This document shows, piece by piece, positions 22,669 through 56,445 of a DNA stretch of 64,000 nt. The DNA lies in assembly GCA_964522435.1 (NCBI GenBank), contig CAZFUL010000003.1:57542-121541 (forward strand). Reading direction: 5' to 3'. The notes below the pieces were generated by a model, which saw only the letters and a list, made by a program, of their open reading frames with translations, ran no database searches and had not been told where the DNA came from. Positions within the stretch are counted from its first letter, which is position 1. Every line of letters begins with the position of its first letter. Source of the stretch: an uncultured Gammaproteobacteria bacterium (GTDB taxonomy: Bacteria > Patescibacteriota > Patescibacteriia > Magasanikbacterales > UBA922). The translations under genes and the position numbers were made by a program.

Positions 22669-23859
22669 TTAGGAGAGAATATGCTGGTGTGCGAGTATGG
22701 TCGCAATGCGACCGCGAGGGGTTCGCTCTAACATGCCTATTTGCAATAAATAGGGTTCATAAATAGTTTCTATCGTATCAATATCTTCCGCAATAGAAGC
22801 AGAAAGTGTCTGAAGACCAACTGGACCACCTTGAAATTTATGAATAATCGTTGCGAGGAGCTTTCTATCGATAGGGTCGAGTCCGTGGGTGTCTATTTGT
22901 AAAAGAGACAGCGCGTTTATTACTAAATCATCGGTAATTATACCATCTGCTGTTACTTGTGCATAGTCACGGACGCGTCGTAGTAACCGGTTGGCAATAC
23001 GCGGGGTATGACGAGAGCGAGAGCCAATTAATGATGTCGCAGAAGAAGGAATAGTAATACCTAAACGAGAAGCATTTTTTTGAATAATCGTATCAATTTC
23101 TGATGGTGTATAAAAATCTAAATGAAATAAGTGGCCAAAGCGGTCTCTAAGCGGGTTGGAGAGGAGATGTAATTTCGTGGTTGCGCCAACTAAGGTAAAG
23201 GGTTCTACCGGCATGCGAAGGGTTTTTGCTCCAGGGCCTTTTCCTACAATAATATCAATCGCATAATCCTCCATGGCAGTATACAGTACTTCCTCAATGG
23301 TTCTATTAATACGATGGATTTCATCAATAAATAATACATCACCTTTTCCTAAATGAGAGAGAATCGCCGCCAAATCTCCCACTCGCTCTAAGGCTGGGCC
23401 GGCCGTAATGGTCATATGTGCCTCCATTTCTTTTGCAACAATACTCGCCAGAGTTGTTTTTCCTAATCCAGGATTCCCATAAAGAAGCAGATGTTCCATG
23501 GGCTCTTGTCTTTTTTTTGCTGCCTCCATAGAGATCGACAGGGGACGTTTTACCTGTTCTTGACCAATAAAATCAGCCAATCGTTCTGGACGCATGGCAT
23601 AATCATGTTTTATTTCTTCTGGCTGTGTTTTTGCGGTCACGATCCGCTCTTCGTCAAGAAGCTCCGATTCATCAAAAATCATAAAGATAAAGAAGGAATA
23701 GCTATACGGGCTCATCGTACCATAGCTTGAGTGATATGGAAACAGGGATATAGATAAAAAATTGTCTGAGAGAGTTGTTTTTTTATACGAAATCGCAGGC
23801 ACTTTTTTAGGGTTGTATGTTTCTGTGGATAACATGCGGATACGATTATTTTGCGACAT
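22669..23859 (-). CDS. ruvB: Holliday junction ATP-dependent DNA helicase RuvB (true start probably near 23682)
   Basis: RPERLADFIGQEQVK, Walker A GNPGLGKTT, Walker B VLFIDEIHR, sensor and winged-helix regions; the first ~60 codons of the ORF (low-complexity Ser/Tyr/Phe) look like leader read-through. Confidence 0.85.
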   Translation of the reverse strand: MSQNNRIRMLSTETYNPKKVPAISYKKTTLSDNFLSISLFPYHSSYGTMSPYSYSFFIFMIFDESELLDEERIVTAKTQPEEIKHDYAMRPERLADFIGQEQVKRPLSISMEAAKKRQEPMEHLLLYGNPGLGKTTLASIVAKEMEAHMTITAGPALERVGDLAAILSHLGKGDVLFIDEIHRINRTIEEVLYTAMEDYAIDIIVGKGPGAKTLRMPVEPFTLVGATTKLHLLSNPLRDRFGHLFHLDFYTPSEIDTIIQKNASRLGITIPSSATSLIGSRSRHTPRIANRLLRRVRDYAQVTADGIITDDLVINALSLLQIDTHGLDPIDRKLLATIIHKFQGGPVGLQTLSASIAEDIDTIETIYEPYLLQIGMLERTPRGRIATILAHQHILS

Positions 23860-48857: not shown

Positions 48858-49295
48858 CTATCCTGTTGTCCCAAATCCACCACGATTTTTTTTATTCATA
48901 CTCTCTACTTCTACCAGTGTTGCTTGATCCGCGCGTACGAGCAGTGCTTGGGCAATACGTTCTCCTTTTTCTATGCGAACCGCTTCATCAGTAAGATTTT
49001 GTACGAGAAGGTAAATCTCGTCAGCATCACCACAATAATCTTGATCAATAACAGCAATGCCATTTCGCATAGACAGACCCTTCTTTTTGGCAGAGCTAGA
49101 GCGGGCTGCAATAATAAGCGCATAGCCCTGTGGTATCTCTACCACAATATTTGCGGGTAATAACAAAAATTCCCGAGGGGGAATGGTGGCTTCAATTCTT
49201 GTGTACAGATCAAATGCCACTGCCCCGGGAGTTTGGTAAGCTGGGAGCGGCAGCGTGGTGTCAATACGTTTAATGCGTAACTCCATAGCGTTCAA
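48858..49295 (-). CDS. dut: dUTP diphosphatase
   Basis: 145 aa; AFDLY, ...IIAARSSSAKKKGL, ...IDQDYCGD..., GERIAQ dUTPase motifs. Confidence 0.85.
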   Translation of the reverse strand: MNAMELRIKRIDTTLPLPAYQTPGAVAFDLYTRIEATIPPREFLLLPANIVVEIPQGYALIIAARSSSAKKKGLSMRNGIAVIDQDYCGDADEIYLLVQNLTDEAVRIEKGERIAQALLVRADQATLVEVESMNKKNRGGFGTTG

Positions 49296-49845
49296 TAAGT
49301 GTGGTTAATTGGCGATGAAGATCTTGTTTATCACCATTATTATCAATATGTTCTGTACTGTGTTGTATGACCTCTAAAATACTCAATTCTGTTGATCGTT
49401 CATGATCCGCTAAAAATTGTTCATAGGTCTTTTTTTGATCATCCGCGTTCTCGCTTCTTGCGATAAGACGTTCATAACGAATACGGGGATCCGCAGATAC
49501 GTCTACTAAGACAAATCCTGGAATTGCTTGTAAATAAGCAATATCTGCCATACGGCGGATACCATCAACGACGATTAATTGGTGGGAATCTTCTTGTACA
49601 TCATGGGCAATAGTTTTTGCCAACACATCTTCTCCAAAATCGTTGCGGAGACTTTCAGAAATTTTTATTAAATGATCACGCGTATGTTCTACATACACCC
49701 GATCTAATATATCTCGTAAAATAGTAGAAAAACGGTAGCTTTTGGCTCCAAAGGTTTGTTCGAGGTACGCAGCACAGGTTCCTTTGCCACTGGCAAGGAG
49801 GCCTGTTAATCCAATAATACAGCGTTTGTTGTTATTGTCCTGCAT
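49270..49845 (-). CDS. P-loop nucleotide/deoxynucleotide monophosphate kinase-like protein
   Basis: 191 aa; CIIGLTGLLASGKGT Walker A, IVVDGIRR; placed between dut and dCMP deaminase. Confidence 0.4.
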   Translation of the reverse strand: MQDNNNKRCIIGLTGLLASGKGTCAAYLEQTFGAKSYRFSTILRDILDRVYVEHTRDHLIKISESLRNDFGEDVLAKTIAHDVQEDSHQLIVVDGIRRMADIAYLQAIPGFVLVDVSADPRIRYERLIARSENADDQKKTYEQFLADHERSTELSILEVIQHSTEHIDNNGDKQDLHRQLTTLIERYGVTH

Positions 49846-50353
49846 ATTGTTCTACCATGTCATCAAAATAATGTAGCGCTATACCCACTTGACGGAACAT
49901 ATCTTCACTTTCTGCTCCGGCATGATATTTCTTTTCGCACACTACCCGCACAATGCCCGCATTAATAATCATTTGGGCACACACGCGGCAGGGGGTCATT
50001 TTGCAATATAATACAGAGCCTTCAATACTGACGCCTAGTTTTGCGGCTTGAACAATAGCATTTTGTTCGGCATGGGTGGTGCGAACACAGTGTTGGGTTT
50101 CGTGACCATCTTGGTGACGAACAATTTTAAATAAATGGCCAAGCTCATCACAATGAGGTAATCCTGCGGGAGCACCAACATAGCCGGTTACGAGAATTTG
50201 TTTGTTTTTTGCAATCACACAGCCAGAACGACCGCGATCACAGGTTGCCCGTTGCGCAACGGCTCTTGCTACCTCCATAAAATACTCATCCCACGAAGGG
50301 CGATAATGTTGTTCTTGGGTCATATAAAAGAGGATAAAAAAGACAGGCAGCAA
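49832..50353 (-). CDS. dCMP deaminase (cytidine/deoxycytidylate deaminase family)
   Basis: 173 aa; zinc motifs HAEQNAI and PCRVCAQ. Confidence 0.8.
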   Translation of the reverse strand: MLPVFFILFYMTQEQHYRPSWDEYFMEVARAVAQRATCDRGRSGCVIAKNKQILVTGYVGAPAGLPHCDELGHLFKIVRHQDGHETQHCVRTTHAEQNAIVQAAKLGVSIEGSVLYCKMTPCRVCAQMIINAGIVRVVCEKKYHAGAESEDMFRQVGIALHYFDDMVEQYAGQ

Positions 50354-50399
50354 GCAAAGTGTAGCAAGTTTTTAGAGGACAATCAAATCAGGTGAGAGA

Positions 50400-50437
50400 T
50401 GGGAGGATAAAAAAATCCTGCACCATTCTGGTGCAGG
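50400..50437 (-). terminator. Rho-independent terminator after rplA
   Basis: Minus-strand reading ATCCTGCACCagaaTGGTGCAGGATtttttttatcc. Confidence 0.7.
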
Positions 50438-50456
50438 ATTTTATGTATCTGATATA

Positions 50457-51260
50457 TTAGGCTGTTACGTCAACTTTTACACTTGGCCCCATTGCAGAGG
50501 TAAGATACAGTGCTTTGATGTAGGTTCCTTTTGCGGTATTTGGTTTTGCACGGCGAAGCGCATCAAGGAACGCAACGATGTTTTCTTTTAATTGTTGTTC
50601 TGAAAAACTGACTTTTCCTACCACTTGGTGAATATTTGCGGTATCGTCATTTTTACAAGAGATTTTTCCTTTTTTGAGCTCTGTTACCATTTTAGCCACG
50701 TCAGTACCAACAGTATCAGTCTTTGGATTCGGCATGAGCCCTCGGGGTCCAAGAACACGAGCGATCATCGCGAGTTTCGGCATCATATCTGGGGTAGCAA
50801 TAGCGACATCAAAATCTACTTTACCGGTGTCTTTAATAGTTTTAATATCTTCGTCAGTAAAGATAAAGTCTGCTCCAGCATCTTTTGCTGCTTTTTCACT
50901 GTTTGGGTTTACAAAGGCAGCGACGCGTTTTGTTTTACCCACACCATGTGGAAGGGTAAGGGTCATACGAATGTGTTGGTCTGTTTTTTTGGTATTAATA
51001 CCAAGACGAGCATGCACTTCTACAGATGCGTCGAATTTTACGGTGCTTGTTGCTTTAATCAGCGGAAGGGCTTGATCAAGCGAATACAGCTTTGTACGGT
51101 CGATTTGGGCTGCCGCAGCAGTCATTCTTTTAGACATATATATGGATATACCCGACTTTGCTACGCTTCGTCGGGCACGCGTGGTACATACCTCTGAATG
51201 ATCAGAGTCCCACATAAAAATAAGTAGGCTGACTATACGAAAAAAATGCGATATTGTCAA
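50457..51260 (-). CDS. rplA: 50S ribosomal protein L1 (true start probably ATG at 51137, MSKRMTAAAAQ)
   Basis: L1 signature ...KFDASVEVHARLGINTKKTDQHIRMTLTLPHG...; the first 41 codons of the ORF are non-L1 sequence. Confidence 0.85.
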   Translation of the reverse strand: MTISHFFRIVSLLIFMWDSDHSEVCTTRARRSVAKSGISIYMSKRMTAAAAQIDRTKLYSLDQALPLIKATSTVKFDASVEVHARLGINTKKTDQHIRMTLTLPHGVGKTKRVAAFVNPNSEKAAKDAGADFIFTDEDIKTIKDTGKVDFDVAIATPDMMPKLAMIARVLGPRGLMPNPKTDTVGTDVAKMVTELKKGKISCKNDDTANIHQVVGKVSFSEQQLKENIVAFLDALRRAKPNTAKGTYIKALYLTSAMGPSVKVDVTA

Positions 51261-51271
51261 GCACTCAGGGC

Positions 51272-52402
51272 TTATTGGTTGAGTTGCATAGGCATAGCCC
51301 AGCGTGTTTCAAGCCTCCCTTTGCCAATAGCTTCTTGATCAATAGTGCCCATACCGAGTGGAGCCAGAGCCCCAAGAATACGTTCTGTCGTGCTTGCATT
51401 TGCTATAAATGGCTGGCTCAGGGTATTTATGCTAATAGGAATAAGGTCATAGCTTGCTTGAATGTGCTCATCGGTTTTTTCTATTGTTATACCAAGGGTT
51501 AAGCCCTGCATGGTTTCTTCAGAAAAATATTGATCAAAAATAAAGTTTCCGAGACTATAAAAAATAAGCCGATCATTATATTGTTCAATTGGTTGAATAA
51601 CATGCGGATGTGCCCCAATCACCATGTCTACGCCAGCATCAATAAGGGCATGAGCTTCTTGGATTTGTTGGGTATTTGGTTTGTCTGTGACATATTCTGT
51701 TCCCCAGTGTGGCATAGCAATAAGAACATCTACCTCGCTATTTAATCGTTCTGCTTCGTTGACCACCTCATCAAATCCACTACCAATAAGTTCATGAAAG
51801 CCAAGAAATCCTAAGGTAATACCATGGCTACTGGTCGTAAATGATAAAAACAAGGGATCGTTATTGGGATCACCAAAAAAAGCAATGCCCGTCTCTGTTA
51901 ACACTGTTTTGGTTTGCTCTAATCCTGCTTGGCCAAAGTTATGGGTATGATTATTTGCCAAACTGAGGATATCAAAACGTCTGGATAATGGTTCTGCGAA
52001 TAATGGCGAAAAGGTAAAGGTAAAGCGGGCGCCCCCGGTGCCATTGGCAATAGATTGAAAGTTGGTGATAGGGCCTTCTAAGTTGCCGAGCCGAAGGTCG
52101 TAGTCAGAAAATAATGCGTCAATCAACAAAAAGGGGTGATCATAGCTCCCGGCTGCTTTGGTTTTTAACCAAACACTGCGGTCAAGCATCATATCTCCCA
52201 CGGCTAATAAGCGGACTACCTCTTTGGAGGGTATTTCTGGGGCTGCGGCAAGCTCCAGCTGAGATGGCGTATTAGGAAAAGGAAGAGTCGTTTTTGGAAA
52301 TAGGGATCTATTAAACAGCAATACAACAACGCTTGTTGCAAGAAACACCAGCAAACAAATAATCGCAATCAGAACATATCGTTGTGCAGCAGATAAGGGC
52401 AT
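51272..52402 (-). CDS. CapA/PGA-capsule-synthesis-family metallophosphoesterase-like protein, N-terminal TM
   Basis: 376 aa; LLAVGDMMLDR, LGNLEGP, ANNHTHNFG, IAMPHWGTEY, GAHPHVIQP motifs of the CapA (PGA_cap) family. Confidence 0.7.
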   Translation of the reverse strand: MPLSAAQRYVLIAIICLLVFLATSVVVLLFNRSLFPKTTLPFPNTPSQLELAAAPEIPSKEVVRLLAVGDMMLDRSVWLKTKAAGSYDHPFLLIDALFSDYDLRLGNLEGPITNFQSIANGTGGARFTFTFSPLFAEPLSRRFDILSLANNHTHNFGQAGLEQTKTVLTETGIAFFGDPNNDPLFLSFTTSSHGITLGFLGFHELIGSGFDEVVNEAERLNSEVDVLIAMPHWGTEYVTDKPNTQQIQEAHALIDAGVDMVIGAHPHVIQPIEQYNDRLIFYSLGNFIFDQYFSEETMQGLTLGITIEKTDEHIQASYDLIPISINTLSQPFIANASTTERILGALAPLGMGTIDQEAIGKGRLETRWAMPMQLNQ

Positions 52403-52412
52403 GTGAAGAAGA

Positions 52413-53339
52413 TTATTTTTTGAGAATCACCGTACAAGAACTTGGGCTGCTATCTTCGTCAAATCCTGCAGGGCAGCTATTGTTGAGGTCGTTACTCGGG
52501 TTACACATAAGAGTCCCATCTGCACGATAGAGGGTACTAAAACAGTTGGGACAGTTTTCTATTTGAAGATAATAGGTATTTCCTGCAACGCGACAACGTG
52601 CCACTGAGGCTGATTGTACAGAAGGGTTGTCTTTTAAAAGAGAAAATGGAACGGCTACCCAATCTGGAATACCTTGTTCTGTATAAATGGGTTCTGGCGC
52701 ACTGTAATCTGGAACCGTCGGAGGAGGAGTATTAGAATTATTTTGGGATTCATTATTTGACTGTTGTTGTGAGGATCCTGTTTGAGATCCTGGTCGGCTG
52801 GGTTCTGGAACAATAGGAGGATTTGTTGGTTCTTGGCCAATAGAGCAGGTGCCTATATGTGCTACGGTTACCTGTTGTTGAGCCGCAATACATTCGTTAC
52901 TATAGGTTCTTCCGTTTGTCCCACAGATGGGGTTTGCAATGGGTTCACAAAAACGTGGAGCGTCATACACATCTTCTGCATTCGCACTGGTTGTTGGTGT
53001 ACTCAGCGCTAAAGCCGTATCAATGCCGCAGTCGCCAGATAAAAAGGCAAGGGCGTCACAACGACGTGCATCGGTTAAGACGCAATCAAACACATAGCCT
53101 TGGTCGGTCGTAATAATATCAAAGCTATTTCCATTATAGACACACCAGGCATAGGCTTGTTGCTCTTGTGTACTTGGCACGACGGTTTCATTATTGGTTA
53201 CGGGGGGTTGTTCTGTTTCTTCTTGAACACGAGAACAGCCAGCACCAAGAATAACCAAGATGCTGAGTGAAAGGAGAATACGCAAAAGAGGAATACGCAT
53301 AACACTATGACAAAACCATGTTACTGGGCGAATGAGCAA
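52413..53339 (-). CDS. Lipoprotein with Kazal-type serine protease inhibitor domain and additional Cys-rich modules
   Basis: 308 aa; lipobox LVILGAGC; CEPIANPICGTNGRTYSNECIAAQQQVTVAHIGTC matches the Kazal spacing (C-x6-C-x7-C-x6-Y-x3-C-x..-C) with the PxCG.nG.TY.N.C core; Ser/Gln/Asn/Pro-rich linker. Confidence 0.65.
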   Translation of the reverse strand: MLIRPVTWFCHSVMRIPLLRILLSLSILVILGAGCSRVQEETEQPPVTNNETVVPSTQEQQAYAWCVYNGNSFDIITTDQGYVFDCVLTDARRCDALAFLSGDCGIDTALALSTPTTSANAEDVYDAPRFCEPIANPICGTNGRTYSNECIAAQQQVTVAHIGTCSIGQEPTNPPIVPEPSRPGSQTGSSQQQSNNESQNNSNTPPPTVPDYSAPEPIYTEQGIPDWVAVPFSLLKDNPSVQSASVARCRVAGNTYYLQIENCPNCFSTLYRADGTLMCNPSNDLNNSCPAGFDEDSSPSSCTVILKK

Positions 53340-54504
53340 GATAGCTATGAATATTTTCTATACCTGTATCTAAAATACGTTGAATTGCTTCTTGGCTGTT
53401 AAAGGCATTATGTGGGGTAACGAGTACTTGGGGATGATCAACGAGCACGTTATTAATAAGACTGACCCGTGTTTCTTCAGCAGAATGCTGTGAGAGTAAT
53501 TTTATCGAATCTTGCATCACATCTTCCCCTTCTAATACGTCTAAGCCAGCTCCTGCAACAATCTTGTTGTTGAGGCCATAGAGGAGTGCCTCTGAATCAA
53601 TAAGTGCGCCACGAGCCGTGTTAATAAGAATAACACCTGGTTTCATTTTTTTTATGGCTTTTTTATCTATAAGATGATAGGTGCTGTCAAACAACGGAAC
53701 ATGTAACGAAATAATATCTGATTGTTTTAAGAGTTGTGAAAGCGAAACATAGCGAAAACGATATTCTTGTTGTAATTCTTTTTTTGGCATGGTGTCAAAG
53801 GCAACAATATTTGTATGGAATCCTTGCAACATACGAATGGTGTGAATGCCAATTTTTCCTGTTCCAATAATGCCCACGGTTTTATCTTTTAAATCCATGC
53901 CGCATAAACCATGATAGTCAAAATTGCCTTCTTTTACCCGTTTAATCGCTGGAAACATTTGGCGACTTAAACAAAGCATAAGGGCAATGGTATATTCTGC
54001 CACCGTATGTTCGCCATAATTAGGAACATTGCACACGGGAATATGTTTTTTCTTTGCGTAACCAATATCAATATGATCATAGCCCGTTGAGAGCGTAACA
54101 ATCAATTGTAATTTTGGTAACGCATCAATGATTTTTTTTGATACAGGAGAATCTACAAACACCACCAGGATATTCGTTTCTTTATCAAGCGTTTCTTGGC
54201 TGAGTGGGGTATGACAAACACGCAGCGTAAGGCCGCGCAGTTTTGTGCGAAGATATGTTTTGTGTTCTGGAGTAAGCGTAAGGTAGGCGCTCACGATCGT
54301 TTTTTTCTTTAGCATAGTATCCGTAGTATAACAAAACTCGCCAGAGTTGGCGAGTTTCGTATATTGTATATGCGTACGTCCCTTCTCGGTATACAAGCAC
54401 GAAAACGTCCTCGCGTTAGGGTACCTGCTGTACCCTGCGCTGTGGATGTTTTCTTTGCCTGTATACCGTAGCGGGACTGATAGATGTGGCAGATTAGCCT
54501 TCAA
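53305..54504 (-). CDS. D-isomer-specific 2-hydroxyacid dehydrogenase (true start probably 54315, MLKKKTIV)
   Basis: NAD-binding [12 protein letters not shown], catalytic Arg/Glu/His region LINTARG...D; N-terminal 63 codons of ORF overlap rplK 3' region and look non-coding. Confidence 0.75.
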
Positions 54505-54919
54505 TTTTTACGCCCATTTGTTTTGCGGTTCCAGCAATAATCTTCATTGCTGCGTCCACATCATTTGCGTTTAAGTCAGGCATTTTGGTTTCTGCGATTT
54601 CACGGAGTTGCGCTTTGGTAATAGTACCTGCTTTATCTTTTAATGGATTTGCAGCACCAGATTTAATACCAGCTGCTTTTTTAATCAATGAACTTGCCGG
54701 AGCAACTTTCATGATAAAGTCAAAACTGCGGTCGTCGTACACACTAATAACCACAGGAACAACTTCTCCTTTTTTGTCTGCAGTTCTATTATTAAACTGT
54801 CCACAAAAATCTTGAATGTTTAACCCGTGTTGTCCAAGTGCTGGACCGACTGGAGGTGCTGGGTTAGCAGCGCCACCAACAATTTGTAATTTAATTTGGG
54901 TGACTAATTTTTTTGCCAT
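54494..54919 (-). CDS. rplK: 50S ribosomal protein L11
   Basis: 141 aa; [36 protein letters not shown]. Confidence 0.9.
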
Positions 54920-55040
54920 AGGTTTGATAGGATCAACTGCCTAAATAATCGACAGGAGTAAATACATTCTATTAGGGGAGAAGCTTCTGTGTTGTATTGC
55001 AGAACGCCCTAAATAAAATGTACTTACCCGACTAAAGAAA

Positions 55041-55586
55041 TTATACTTTTTTTACTTGTAAGGCATCTAATTCAACCGGTGTTTCTCGGCCAAACATGTT
55101 TACAAATACTTTAATTTTTCCACGAGTTTCGTCTACCGCGTTTACTTTTCCTTCAAATCCTTTAAACGGACCGTCGACAATCTGTACCATATCGTTCATG
55201 TTCACATCAATCTTGTGACTTGGGTCATTCACGCCCATACGTTTTTGTAAGGCATCCATTTCTTTTGCATCAATGGGGGTAGGGGTAACGCCAGAACCAA
55301 CGAATCCCGTAACATTTGGGGTGTTACGCACCACATACCAAGAATCATCGTTGACGACCATTTCTACCAACACATACCCAGGGAAGATTTTTTCTTCCAC
55401 GACTAAACGTTTTCCATTTTTAATTTTAATTTTCTTTTCTTTTGGAACCAATACCGCAAAAATACGGTCTTCCATACCAAAGGTTTCAACACGTTGCTCT
55501 AAGTTCCGTTTTACATTTTCTTCGTAACCACTGTAGGTGTGAAGAACATACCAACGTTTTCCAAGATCCTGGGTTTGTTTTGCCAT
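55041..55586 (-). CDS. nusG: Transcription termination/antitermination factor NusG
   Basis: 181 aa; NGN domain RWYVLHTYSGYEENV, C-terminal KOW GFEGKV. Confidence 0.85.
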   Translation of the reverse strand: MAKQTQDLGKRWYVLHTYSGYEENVKRNLEQRVETFGMEDRIFAVLVPKEKKIKIKNGKRLVVEEKIFPGYVLVEMVVNDDSWYVVRNTPNVTGFVGSGVTPTPIDAKEMDALQKRMGVNDPSHKIDVNMNDMVQIVDGPFKGFEGKVNAVDETRGKIKVFVNMFGRETPVELDALQVKKV

Positions 55587-55640
55587 ATAGATGAAGAACT
55601 AGGGTTGTGGTGGTGGGCACCAGCAAAAAGAAGTAAATAA

Positions 55641-55823
55641 TTATGAAATAAGAGAAGAAAGTCCAAGGTTGAGGAAGTAATCGAGAAGTCCAAAAAAGAG
55701 GGCAACCGTAATACTTAAAATAACCACTACTGCTGAGTAATAGGTCGTTTGTTTCTTGGTTGGCCAAGTGACTTTTTTCATTTCATGAATTGCTTCAATG
55801 AGATAGTTTTTGAGGGCGGTCAT
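55641..55823 (-). CDS. secE: Preprotein translocase subunit SecE (short form; ORF track extension 55824-55988 is leader)
   Basis: MTALKNYLIEAIHEMKKVTWPTKKQTTYYSAVVVILSITVALFFGLLDYF; 61 aa from ATG 55823. Confidence 0.7.
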   Translation of the reverse strand: MTALKNYLIEAIHEMKKVTWPTKKQTTYYSAVVVILSITVALFFGLLDYFLNLGLSSLIS

Positions 55824-55935
55824 AAAAAAAGAGTTAAAAGGCTTAAGGGGAGTACAGAGCACTGAGCTATTGCTCTCTATTCCTATTGAGCCTTTTTTTG
55901 TATCTAAAAACCGGCTTTTGGCCAGTTCTTTGCTT

Positions 55936-55964
55936 AGTATAGGGAAAAATATCTTGTTTGTCAA
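55936..55964 (-). promoter_or_regulatory. Sigma70-like promoter TTGACA-N17-TATACT for secE-nusG-rplK
   Basis: Minus-strand reading TTGACAaacaagatatttttcccTATACT ~110 nt upstream of secE ATG. Confidence 0.5.
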
Positions 55965-56001
55965 TATGGGAGGAGGGGATAACCTCATACATTGGTGTTA
56001 T

Positions 56002-56445
56002 TTAATCGGTGCTTACGGGAAAGCTATTTGCTATATCCTTAAATGTCGTATATCGGATAATTGAAGGAAGATTCCATTCTTTATTGGCCGGATTTTCTGA
56101 GAACAAGGCTTCGGTATAAGGAATTGAGAGACTTTGTTCTATTGCCATAATGGTTGGCTTACCCATACCAGCAAAGTACCCTGCGTCCCAGCCTCGGCCT
56201 TCGCTACTATCATCGGTCGGAAATAGACAAAGGGCGACATCGCATTGTTTACACAATGCATATGCCTGTCGCACTGCTTCTGATTTTGACAGGACATTTG
56301 TATCCAAATTCCACCCTTGAATATTGCTAATCATGGTAACTACTTCATGGCCATTATTTTCTAATAATACAACTAGCTCATTGAGTTGTTTTTTCAATGT
56401 CTCTAAATCAGCACCGCGAAATTTATAGGCTAACCAAATTTTCAT
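56002..56445 (-). CDS. Nucleoside 2-deoxyribosyltransferase-like protein
   Basis: 147 aa; KIWLAYKFRGAD...CDVALCLFPTDDSSEGRGWDAGYFAGMGKPTIMAIE resembles the Nuc_deoxyrib_tr/Rcl fold pattern (flavodoxin-like, conserved acidic residue, GKP). Confidence 0.45.
   Translation of the reverse strand: MKIWLAYKFRGADLETLKKQLNELVVLLENNGHEVVTMISNIQGWNLDTNVLSKSEAVRQAYALCKQCDVALCLFPTDDSSEGRGWDAGYFAGMGKPTIMAIEQSLSIPYTEALFSENPANKEWNLPSIIRYTTFKDIANSFPVSTD

Follow-up and report, generated by a model that had tools for sequence, protein, structure and literature searches.

The locus described here raises the question of how rplK and rplA, the genes for ribosomal proteins L11 and L1, can come to be separated, and what becomes of the control of rplA when they are. 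In the 64,000-nt stretch of DNA that was analysed (hereafter the window), the start of rplA lies 3356 bp beyond the stop codon of rplK, with the genes for a 2-hydroxyacid dehydrogenase, a Kazal lipoprotein and a CapA protein between them. This split is unusual, as rplA follows rplK within about 700 bp in 78 of the 80 species-representative genomes that were retrieved with L11 for the synteny comparison (loci labelled L001 and so on; L001 is Candidatus Magasanikbacteria CG1_02_41_34). The reading that we favor, with a probability of roughly 80%, is that an old, lineage-specific rearrangement took place in a Magasanikbacteria-like clade and that rplA is a separate unit with its own promoter and its own L1 operator.

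Genes were called from a listing of open reading frames (ORFs) combined with Pfam scans at gathering scores, and promoters and terminators were called as consensus matches in motif scans. The gene order on the minus strand is gyrB, a nucleoside-deoxyribosyltransferase-like gene, secE, nusG, rplK, 2-hydroxyacid dehydrogenase, Kazal lipoprotein, CapA, rplA, dCMP deaminase and a kinase. An earlier reading made from the letters alone (the sequence-only reading) had described an intact secE-nusG-rplK run with rplA 3.4 kb further on after three same-strand genes, and had taken the pair to be interrupted by an insertion or a rearrangement; the ORF and Pfam scans agree with the former and the gene order bears out the latter, with each of the genes that it named lying on the minus strand and scoring above its Pfam gathering score. 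The features that bear most directly on rplA are the following.

54494-54919, minus strand: rplK (L11), with Pfam Ribosomal_L11_N and Ribosomal_L11
51232-51260, minus strand: promoter of rplA itself, TTGACA-17-TATAGT, 11 of 12 consensus matches
51181-51213, minus strand: predicted L1-binding operator, 33 nt, GUGG/GA/CUCUGA-UCAU-UCAGAG/GUAUGUA/CCAC
51148-51178, minus strand: extra hairpin between the operator and the rplA start codon, from the leader fold
50457-51137, minus strand: rplA (L1), Pfam Ribosomal_L1 at 188 bits, 70% identity to the L1 of L001; its start (MSKRM...) agrees with the relatives
50412-50442, minus strand: intrinsic terminator after rplA, a 14-bp stem followed by a T run

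The predicted operator, GUGGGACUCUGAUCAUUCAGAGGUAUGUACCAC, occupies 51213-51181, downstream of the promoter (51260-51232) and upstream of the rplA AUG (51137). An element of this kind recurs immediately ahead of rplA in the related loci and consists of GUGG, GA, a sequence-variable hairpin, 3-7 unpaired bases and CCAC. About 20 Patescibacteria loci have this architecture immediately upstream of rplA, as do Actinobacteria-like loci; in Firmicutes loci, one operator stands before rplK and another before rplA. In every Patescibacteria locus where the operator was found, its position is directly 5' of rplA. Positions G4, G6, G7, G8, A9 and ACCAC are invariant over 30 aligned operator instances, and the operator of L084 has a compensated outer helix, GCGG/CCGC. 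The strict operator pattern matched the window once, compared to 0.17 matches expected. A looser descriptor (GKGGGA with any CCAC) gave 3 window matches against 0.57 expected and was not discriminating alone.

The pairing in the operator is upheld by covariation. The alignment consisted of 14 operators with a 7-nt 3' strand, all taken from other genomes, with the window and its closest relative, L001, excluded. All four inner-helix pairs change on both sides, and 27 cells were changed on both sides compared to 8.5 in shuffled alignments, none of which (0 of 500) reached the observed score. The inner-helix cells were paired in 98% of cases, against 39-59% when the partners were slid, and the outer helix was invariant among the 14 aligned operators. 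Limiting the set to sites with the 7-nt 3' strand cured the hairpin misalignment that had been met when MAFFT and RNAalifold were applied to operators of mixed length, where the outer helix alone was recovered.

The covariance model from this alignment, R2, was run on both strands of the window with filters off. It gave a single significant match, at 51216-51178 (27.1 bits, E = 8.5e-5), and the next-best match in the window scored 11.3 bits (E = 1.2). When R2 was run on the related loci, 584 kb in total, 43 matches were obtained, all of them on the gene strand and just ahead of rplA or, in the case of Firmicutes, of rplK as well. On the E. coli rplKA region, the best match was the experimentally known L1 operator; the L1-stalk region of E. 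coli 23S rRNA scored 2.1 bits, which is low because of the large helix-78 insertion. R2 replaced a first model, R1, which had eight GC-rich Actinobacteria-like sites as its basis and proved too narrow: at the window operator it scored 9.1 bits (E = 4) with a local alignment that skipped the hairpin.

The sequence-only reading had concluded that L1 regulation was rewired, and had suggested a displaced L1 site in the 178-bp gap after rplK (54316-54493). The position of the operator, directly before rplA as in the Patescibacteria relatives, argues against the rewiring. As for a displaced site, the pattern search and R2 gave no match in the gap or in the nusG-rplK spacer, and an L1 site after or before rplK was thus ruled out. 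An Rfam scan of the window at gathering scores passed tRNAs alone and no L1 leader, and a scan at E <= 10 over 50300-56100 returned chance-level matches, mostly to terminator-like or eukaryotic families, with none in the gap, the nusG-rplK spacer or the rplA leader.

The age of the split can be read from the relatives, the closest of which share 82-86% identity in L11 and about 70% in L1. In L001, rplK is followed by an L-lactate dehydrogenase gene (TIGR01771, above cut-off), a Kazal homologue, two hypothetical genes and rplA. The order in L105 is rplK, 2-Hacid_dh, Kazal, rplA, dCMP deaminase and onward, and in L106 it is secE, nusG, a 23S_rRNA_IVP-family gene, rplK, 2-Hacid_dh, Kazal and rplA, while L107 has 2-Hacid_dh, Kazal and rplA on a contig that ends before rplK. 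The Kazal homologues of these relatives, located between rplK and rplA, show 45-61% identity to that of the window (25% in L001). The synteny check that the sequence-only reading had proposed thus found the interrupted order shared within the clade, and the shared arrangement indicates that the separation of rplK and rplA is ancestral to the clade of the window. That reading had also allowed for an interruption that is merely ancestral, with the same order throughout the lineage and no regulatory structure; the interruption proved to be shared and ancestral, but an ordinary operator is present in its ordinary place.

The signals around the genes are also retained in the relatives. In L105, L106 and L107, the Kazal gene is followed by a terminator, and rplA is preceded by a TTGACA-17-TATACT promoter with an operator; in L105 and L106, a terminator also stands after rplK and TATACT before the dehydrogenase. 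More generally, a TTGACA element precedes the operator in L081, L082, L085, L102, L105, L106 and L107, and is joined at 17 nt to a consensus-like -10 hexamer in L082, L105, L106 and L107. In L081, L082 and L102 (62-64% identity in L1), neither rplK nor nusG was found within 10 kb upstream of rplA, and the TTGACA element and the operator still stand before rplA. In L002, rplK is followed by convergent genes with no rplA within 10 kb. In the more distant Patescibacteria, rplK and rplA are close, often with an ORF between rplK and the operator.

As the window comes from an uncultured-organism assembly, a chimeric contig produced by assembly or binning might be thought to account for the split. 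The order rplK-dehydrogenase-Kazal-...-rplA-dCMP deaminase recurs, however, in four or five assemblies that are independent and come from different samples, and the composition is uniform across the junctions, so that an artefact of this kind is exceedingly improbable.

The three genes that lie between rplK and rplA are the following.

53305-54315, minus strand: D-isomer 2-hydroxyacid dehydrogenase, Pfam 2-Hacid_dh_C at 179.8 bits
52413-53300, minus strand: Kazal lipoprotein with a DUF6970-like C-terminus and lipobox LGAGC, Kazal_1 and Kazal_2 above cut-offs
51272-52402, minus strand: CapA/PGA_cap-family protein with an N-terminal membrane anchor, Pfam PGA_cap at 177 bits

The dehydrogenase is D-lactate-dehydrogenase-like, with NCBIfam matches that are all below cut-off and of which the best is to the VanH D-lactate dehydrogenase model. 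Although its mechanical ORF reaches as far as 54504, the Pfam domains start close to the ATG at 54315, in agreement with the 178-bp gap as it had been drawn from the letters. The DUF6970 match of the Kazal lipoprotein (26.5 bits) is just under the cut-off of 27. The gaps between the dehydrogenase, Kazal and CapA genes are 4 nt and 10 nt.

These genes could in principle be a recently acquired foreign island or the cargo of a mobile element. They are functionally unrelated to translation, the content of the interval differs among the relatives, and the GC content of the Kazal gene is slightly high (0.449 compared to a mean of 0.403). Against such an origin, the values obtained in the codon-usage check that the sequence-only reading had called for are within the normal range of the window, both for GC3 (0.32-0.36 compared to 0.31 +/- 0.04) and for codon-usage distance (0.13-0.16 compared to 0.14 +/- 0.03). 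No flanking direct or inverted repeats were found around the three genes, and the ORF listing and Pfam scans showed no integrase or transposase among the ORFs of the window. The dehydrogenase-Kazal core, shared with relatives at the Kazal identities given above, must be old. Only CapA is specific to the window's version of the arrangement; its family is common in, and native to, Magasanikbacteria, and its closest homologues adjoin xseA rather than rplA, so that CapA looks like a native gene that moved in. A foreign island is therefore very improbable and can be regarded as already largely refuted.

Other genes occupy the corresponding interval elsewhere in Patescibacteria. Genes for DUF5671 membrane proteins lie between rplK and the operator at L005:10454-10816, L009:10446-10895, L083:1366-1809 and L084:8953-9942, and the ORF at L008:10456-10818 in the same interval is a homologue of the L005 DUF5671 protein, by similarity only. 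L010 carries a 128-aa ORF at this place. At L001:10664-11596, an unrelated L-lactate dehydrogenase holds the slot of the D-isomer enzyme of the window (53305-54315), and this looks like in-place replacement by a functional analogue. A gene of the 23S_rRNA_IVP family (four-helix bundle) lies between nusG and rplK at L106:2009-2362, which suggests that the nusG-rplK junction is permissive as well. The variety of inserts upstream of the operator points to the rplK-rplA junction as a recurrent insertion point.

The favored rearrangement also bears on how the gap between rplK and the dehydrogenase gene is organized. The whole 178-bp gap folds at -79 kcal/mol (z = -8.9), and it holds the following features.

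54378-54477, minus strand: extended hairpin of about 100 nt in the rplK 3' region, -57 kcal/mol, z = -9.1
54331-54360, minus strand: terminator-like hairpin, 13 pairs, -19.5 kcal/mol, z = -8.3
54325-54333, minus strand: extended -10 element TGtTATACT, listed with its TG in the promoter scan

Both hairpins that the sequence-only reading had quoted exist in the gap: its ACTCGCC...GGCGAGT stem is the hairpin ACTCGCCagagttGGCGAGT at about 54360-54331, and its GGGTAC...GTACCC stem is GGGTACctgctGTACCC, the tip of the hairpin at 54477-54378. It had proposed that a gap hairpin was either the terminator or a displaced L1 site, and of these one terminator-like hairpin stood and the L1 site did not. The hairpin at 54360-54331 is followed by the interrupted U run UUUUGUUAU, and the terminator scan lists it on the plus strand only, opposite to the transcribed strand. 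Canonical terminators occur at the same place after rplK in L001, L105 and L106, and the one in L001 is strong. This hairpin probably ends the secE-nusG-rplK transcript. The element TGtTATACT stands 9 nt before the dehydrogenase ATG; in L105 and L106, TGaTATACT closely precedes the dehydrogenase ATG, and the spacing in L106 is likewise 9 nt. The window element is probably the promoter of a nearly leaderless dehydrogenase-Kazal-CapA transcript. As the layout of the gap is matched in the relatives, the gap most likely ends one transcript, secE-nusG-rplK, and starts another with the dehydrogenase.

The longer hairpin, at 54477-54378, could serve to stabilise the 3' end or be a site for RNase III. 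No second copy of it was found in the window and no sequence homologue in the related loci, and a repeated element was therefore ruled out for the window. Hairpins of about 100 nt that are not homologous to it stand just after rplK at L003:5340-5470, L004:10424-10532 and L006:10424-10560. In the several Patescibacteria that have them, the long hairpins after rplK have z values from -5.7 to -9.9, and those of L003 and L004 are made of repeated ATTCGTAAT-like words. Elsewhere in the window, 20 nt at 23437-23456 match the terminator-tail and -10 part of the gap (CTCTGGCGAGTTTTGTTATA-like) at 95% (E = 0.04); this may be another terminator/promoter junction or a chance match.

Upstream of the gap, the features of the ribosomal run are the following.

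55936-55964, minus strand: promoter-like TTGACA-17-TATACT upstream of secE, 11 of 12 consensus matches
55641-55823, minus strand: secE, Pfam SecE at 62.9 bits over residues 60-113 of a 115-aa ORF
55041-55586, minus strand: nusG, Pfam NusG and KOW, 80% identity to the L001 protein

The secE start was placed at the Met just ahead of the SecE domain, so that its coordinates are approximate. The promoter-like site falls within the over-long mechanical ORF of secE, upstream of the SecE domain, and the secE-nusG-rplK transcript probably starts there.

From the observed gene order, operator covariation, promoter and terminator motifs and arrangement in the relatives, we infer the transcript boundaries, the binding of L1 and the repression of rplA in the following model. 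A first unit, secE-nusG-rplK, would be transcribed from the promoter at 55964-55936 and end at the hairpins of 54477-54331. The second would be the tightly packed dehydrogenase-Kazal-CapA operon, read from the extended -10 element and lacking a terminator of its own. The third would be rplA, transcribed from the TTGACA-17-TATAGT promoter with a 95-nt leader in which the operator lies, and closed by a strong terminator. When L1 is in excess of free 23S rRNA, it would bind the operator, and the translation of rplA alone would be repressed. With the operator before rplA and not before rplK, the two genes would be separate regulatory units, and the stretch between the rplK terminator and the operator could accept genes while L1 feedback is left undisturbed.

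Several points weigh against this reading. The promoter and terminator scans gave about as many sites in shuffled sequence as in the real one. The interruption in the U tract after the rplK hairpin makes read-through past rplK possible, and CapA is not followed by a terminator before the rplA promoter, so that read-through into rplA is likely. Within the operator itself, the base after GGGA is C and not the near-invariant G, although the G opposite compensates for the change across the pair (C-G for G-C). Finally, the distance from the end of the operator to the rplA AUG is 43 nt in the window and 162 nt in L001, compared to about 8-20 nt in most relatives, and the rplA leader (folding at -33 kcal/mol, z = -3.9) holds the extra hairpin at 51148-51178, which is an insertion in the alignment with the relatives and is absent from most of them. 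This spacing, together with the extra hairpin, means that the efficiency or the mode of repression could differ.

The possibility of read-through also bears on whether the insert has been recruited into the ribosomal regulon, such that the dehydrogenase and the envelope proteins would be tied to growth-rate or L1 control. The co-directional genes with their 4-nt and 10-nt gaps, and the interval without a terminator between CapA and the rplA promoter, would fit such a link, as would the lactate-type dehydrogenase that follows rplK in four relatives, and the unrelated L-lactate dehydrogenase in the same slot of L001. However, a terminator-like hairpin and a separate -10 element stand between rplK and the dehydrogenase, here and in the relatives; the operator is downstream of the three genes, which would place them outside L1 control by the known mechanism; and L105, L106 and L107 terminate after the Kazal gene. 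Recruitment of this kind is unlikely.

The departures within the leader similarly raise the question of whether the operator is a vestige in a lineage that has lost L1 autoregulation. The C after GGGA is shared by the window and five relatives in which rplK and rplA are not adjacent (L001, L081, L082, L085 and L102), and the long spacing to the AUG in the window and in L001 would also agree with a loss. The GGGAC...G variant in the window and these five loci appears as a clade-specific replacement of GGGAG...C. On the other side, the change is compensated by a C-G pair, and six divergent genomes retain GUGG, GA, the 7-nt 3' strand and CCAC despite their differing stems, which argues for purifying selection; the window copy also scores 27 bits with a model made from other genomes. 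A vestigial operator is accordingly somewhat less probable still than recruitment, and a separate, autoregulated rplA unit continues to be the reading that we prefer.

The spacer between nusG and rplK, which yielded no L1 site, contains a structure of a different kind.

54956-55029 (core 54971-55013), minus strand: structured nusG-rplK spacer, fold z = -4.2

The structure has a long outer helix, an inner hairpin and a 3' asymmetric loop, GCUUCUC. Of 22 nusG-rplK spacers from Patescibacteria, 12 contain the sequence GCUUCU, compared to 0.76 expected (P of about 4e-11, with kinship ignored), and three Coriobacteriia-like loci have it too. The spacers that bear it are those of L001, L002, L007, L009, L011, L013, L015 and L024, and further those of L026, L050, L084, L105, L106, L028, L038 and L051. 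Unconstrained folds of the relatives' spacers gave an identical architecture, with an outer-helix sequence that varies by locus. There was no Rfam match to the motif (E <= 10, 50300-56100) and no convincing counterpart in E. coli 16S and 23S rRNA, and L11 goes unmentioned in a 2020 paper on 20 new ribosomal leader candidates. A MAFFT alignment of the motif was dropped as the basis for a model, as the structure was not consistent enough.

The GCUUCU element may be an undescribed rplK leader, and it is the sole lead here with real potential for novelty in that it might be new. A more tentative proposal, which we consider doubtful at present, is that rplK and rplA of Patescibacteria are each under their own cis-acting RNA, with the GCUUCU element serving L11 autoregulation or another factor and the L1 operator serving rplA. 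If this is true, the two-operator design would explain the repeated opening of the rplK-rplA junction in Patescibacteria by DUF5671 genes, by the dehydrogenase-Kazal operon and by the full unlinking of rplK and rplA. The spacers of L003, L004, L005, L006, L008 and L034 have no GCUUCU; instead they carry an element of the form NUGG-UYG-hairpin-AAU-CCAN, the outer helix of which covaries (AUGG/CCAU, GUGG/CCAC and CUGG/CCAG).

Downstream of rplA, at 49270-50353 and beyond, the window holds a nucleotide-metabolism cluster (dCMP deaminase, kinase and dUTPase) and no rplJ-rplL-rpoB. The corresponding cluster after rplA at L105:3770-9890 also holds thymidylate synthase, DHFR and thymidylate kinase. 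The presence of this cluster after rplA indicates that the classical ribosomal cluster is broken at a second point too.

In terms of known systems, the placement of L1-interacting RNA was described by Fu et al. in 2013 (NAR 41:3491, PMC3616713): before rplK in Proteobacteria, before rplA in Actinobacteria, Cyanobacteria and Chloroflexi, and before both genes in many Firmicutes. Nanomolar L1 binding was reported in the same work for Geobacillus sites of the same architecture. The loci surveyed here reproduce this placement pattern, and the Patescibacteria would thus join the before-rplA group. Judged by structure, position and covariation, the window element appears to be a member of this known leader class, with which it shares a short stem, an asymmetric bulge starting GGGA and a site within the 5' leader of the gene under control. 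Its architecture is that of the E. coli rplK-leader operator, GGGGAGCCUCUCAGAGGCGUUAUUACCC, and it can be aligned position by position with its GGGAG-CCUC..GAGG-CGUUAUUA-CC. It also resembles the L1 stalk of E. coli 23S rRNA (helices 76-78, GGUGGGAGGC...GCCGACCUUGAAAUACCACC); the match to GGUGG-GA-GGC...GCC-GACCUUGAAAUA-CCACC was made by eye, with E. coli as the sole rRNA compared and an R2 score there of only 2.1 bits. The window element differs from the class as described in that its host belongs to the Patescibacteria (Candidate Phyla Radiation), a phylum absent from the published list, in that rplK does not precede it on one short transcript, and in having C-G instead of G-C beside GGGA and the extra hairpin before the AUG.

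The novelty is modest and lies in three points: that Patescibacteria have the operator and where it stands in them, that rplK and rplA are separated throughout a clade, and that their junction has repeatedly taken up insertions. The current understanding of ribosomal-protein regulation is unchanged by these findings. They do suggest that a highly conserved gene pair is separable without loss of feedback control when the operator precedes rplA, they would extend the L1 leader to the Candidate Phyla Radiation with a working covariance model for an element that has no Rfam family, and they mark the rplK-rplA junction as a recurrent insertion site in Patescibacteria. Compared to the canonical secE-nusG-rplKAJL-rpoBC cluster, the window keeps secE-nusG-rplK contiguous and co-directional, with rplA on the same strand and nearby, but three unrelated genes put 3.4 kb between rplK and rplA, and rplJ, rplL and rpoB do not follow rplA. 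A closer parallel is found in Methanococcus vannielii, in which rplK is apart from rplA and an L1-binding structure directly precedes rplA (PMC3616713). There, as is predicted for the window, rplA belongs to a self-contained, autoregulated unit, but in M. vannielii it is co-transcribed with rplJ and rplL, whereas in the window a terminator and nucleotide-metabolism genes come after it.

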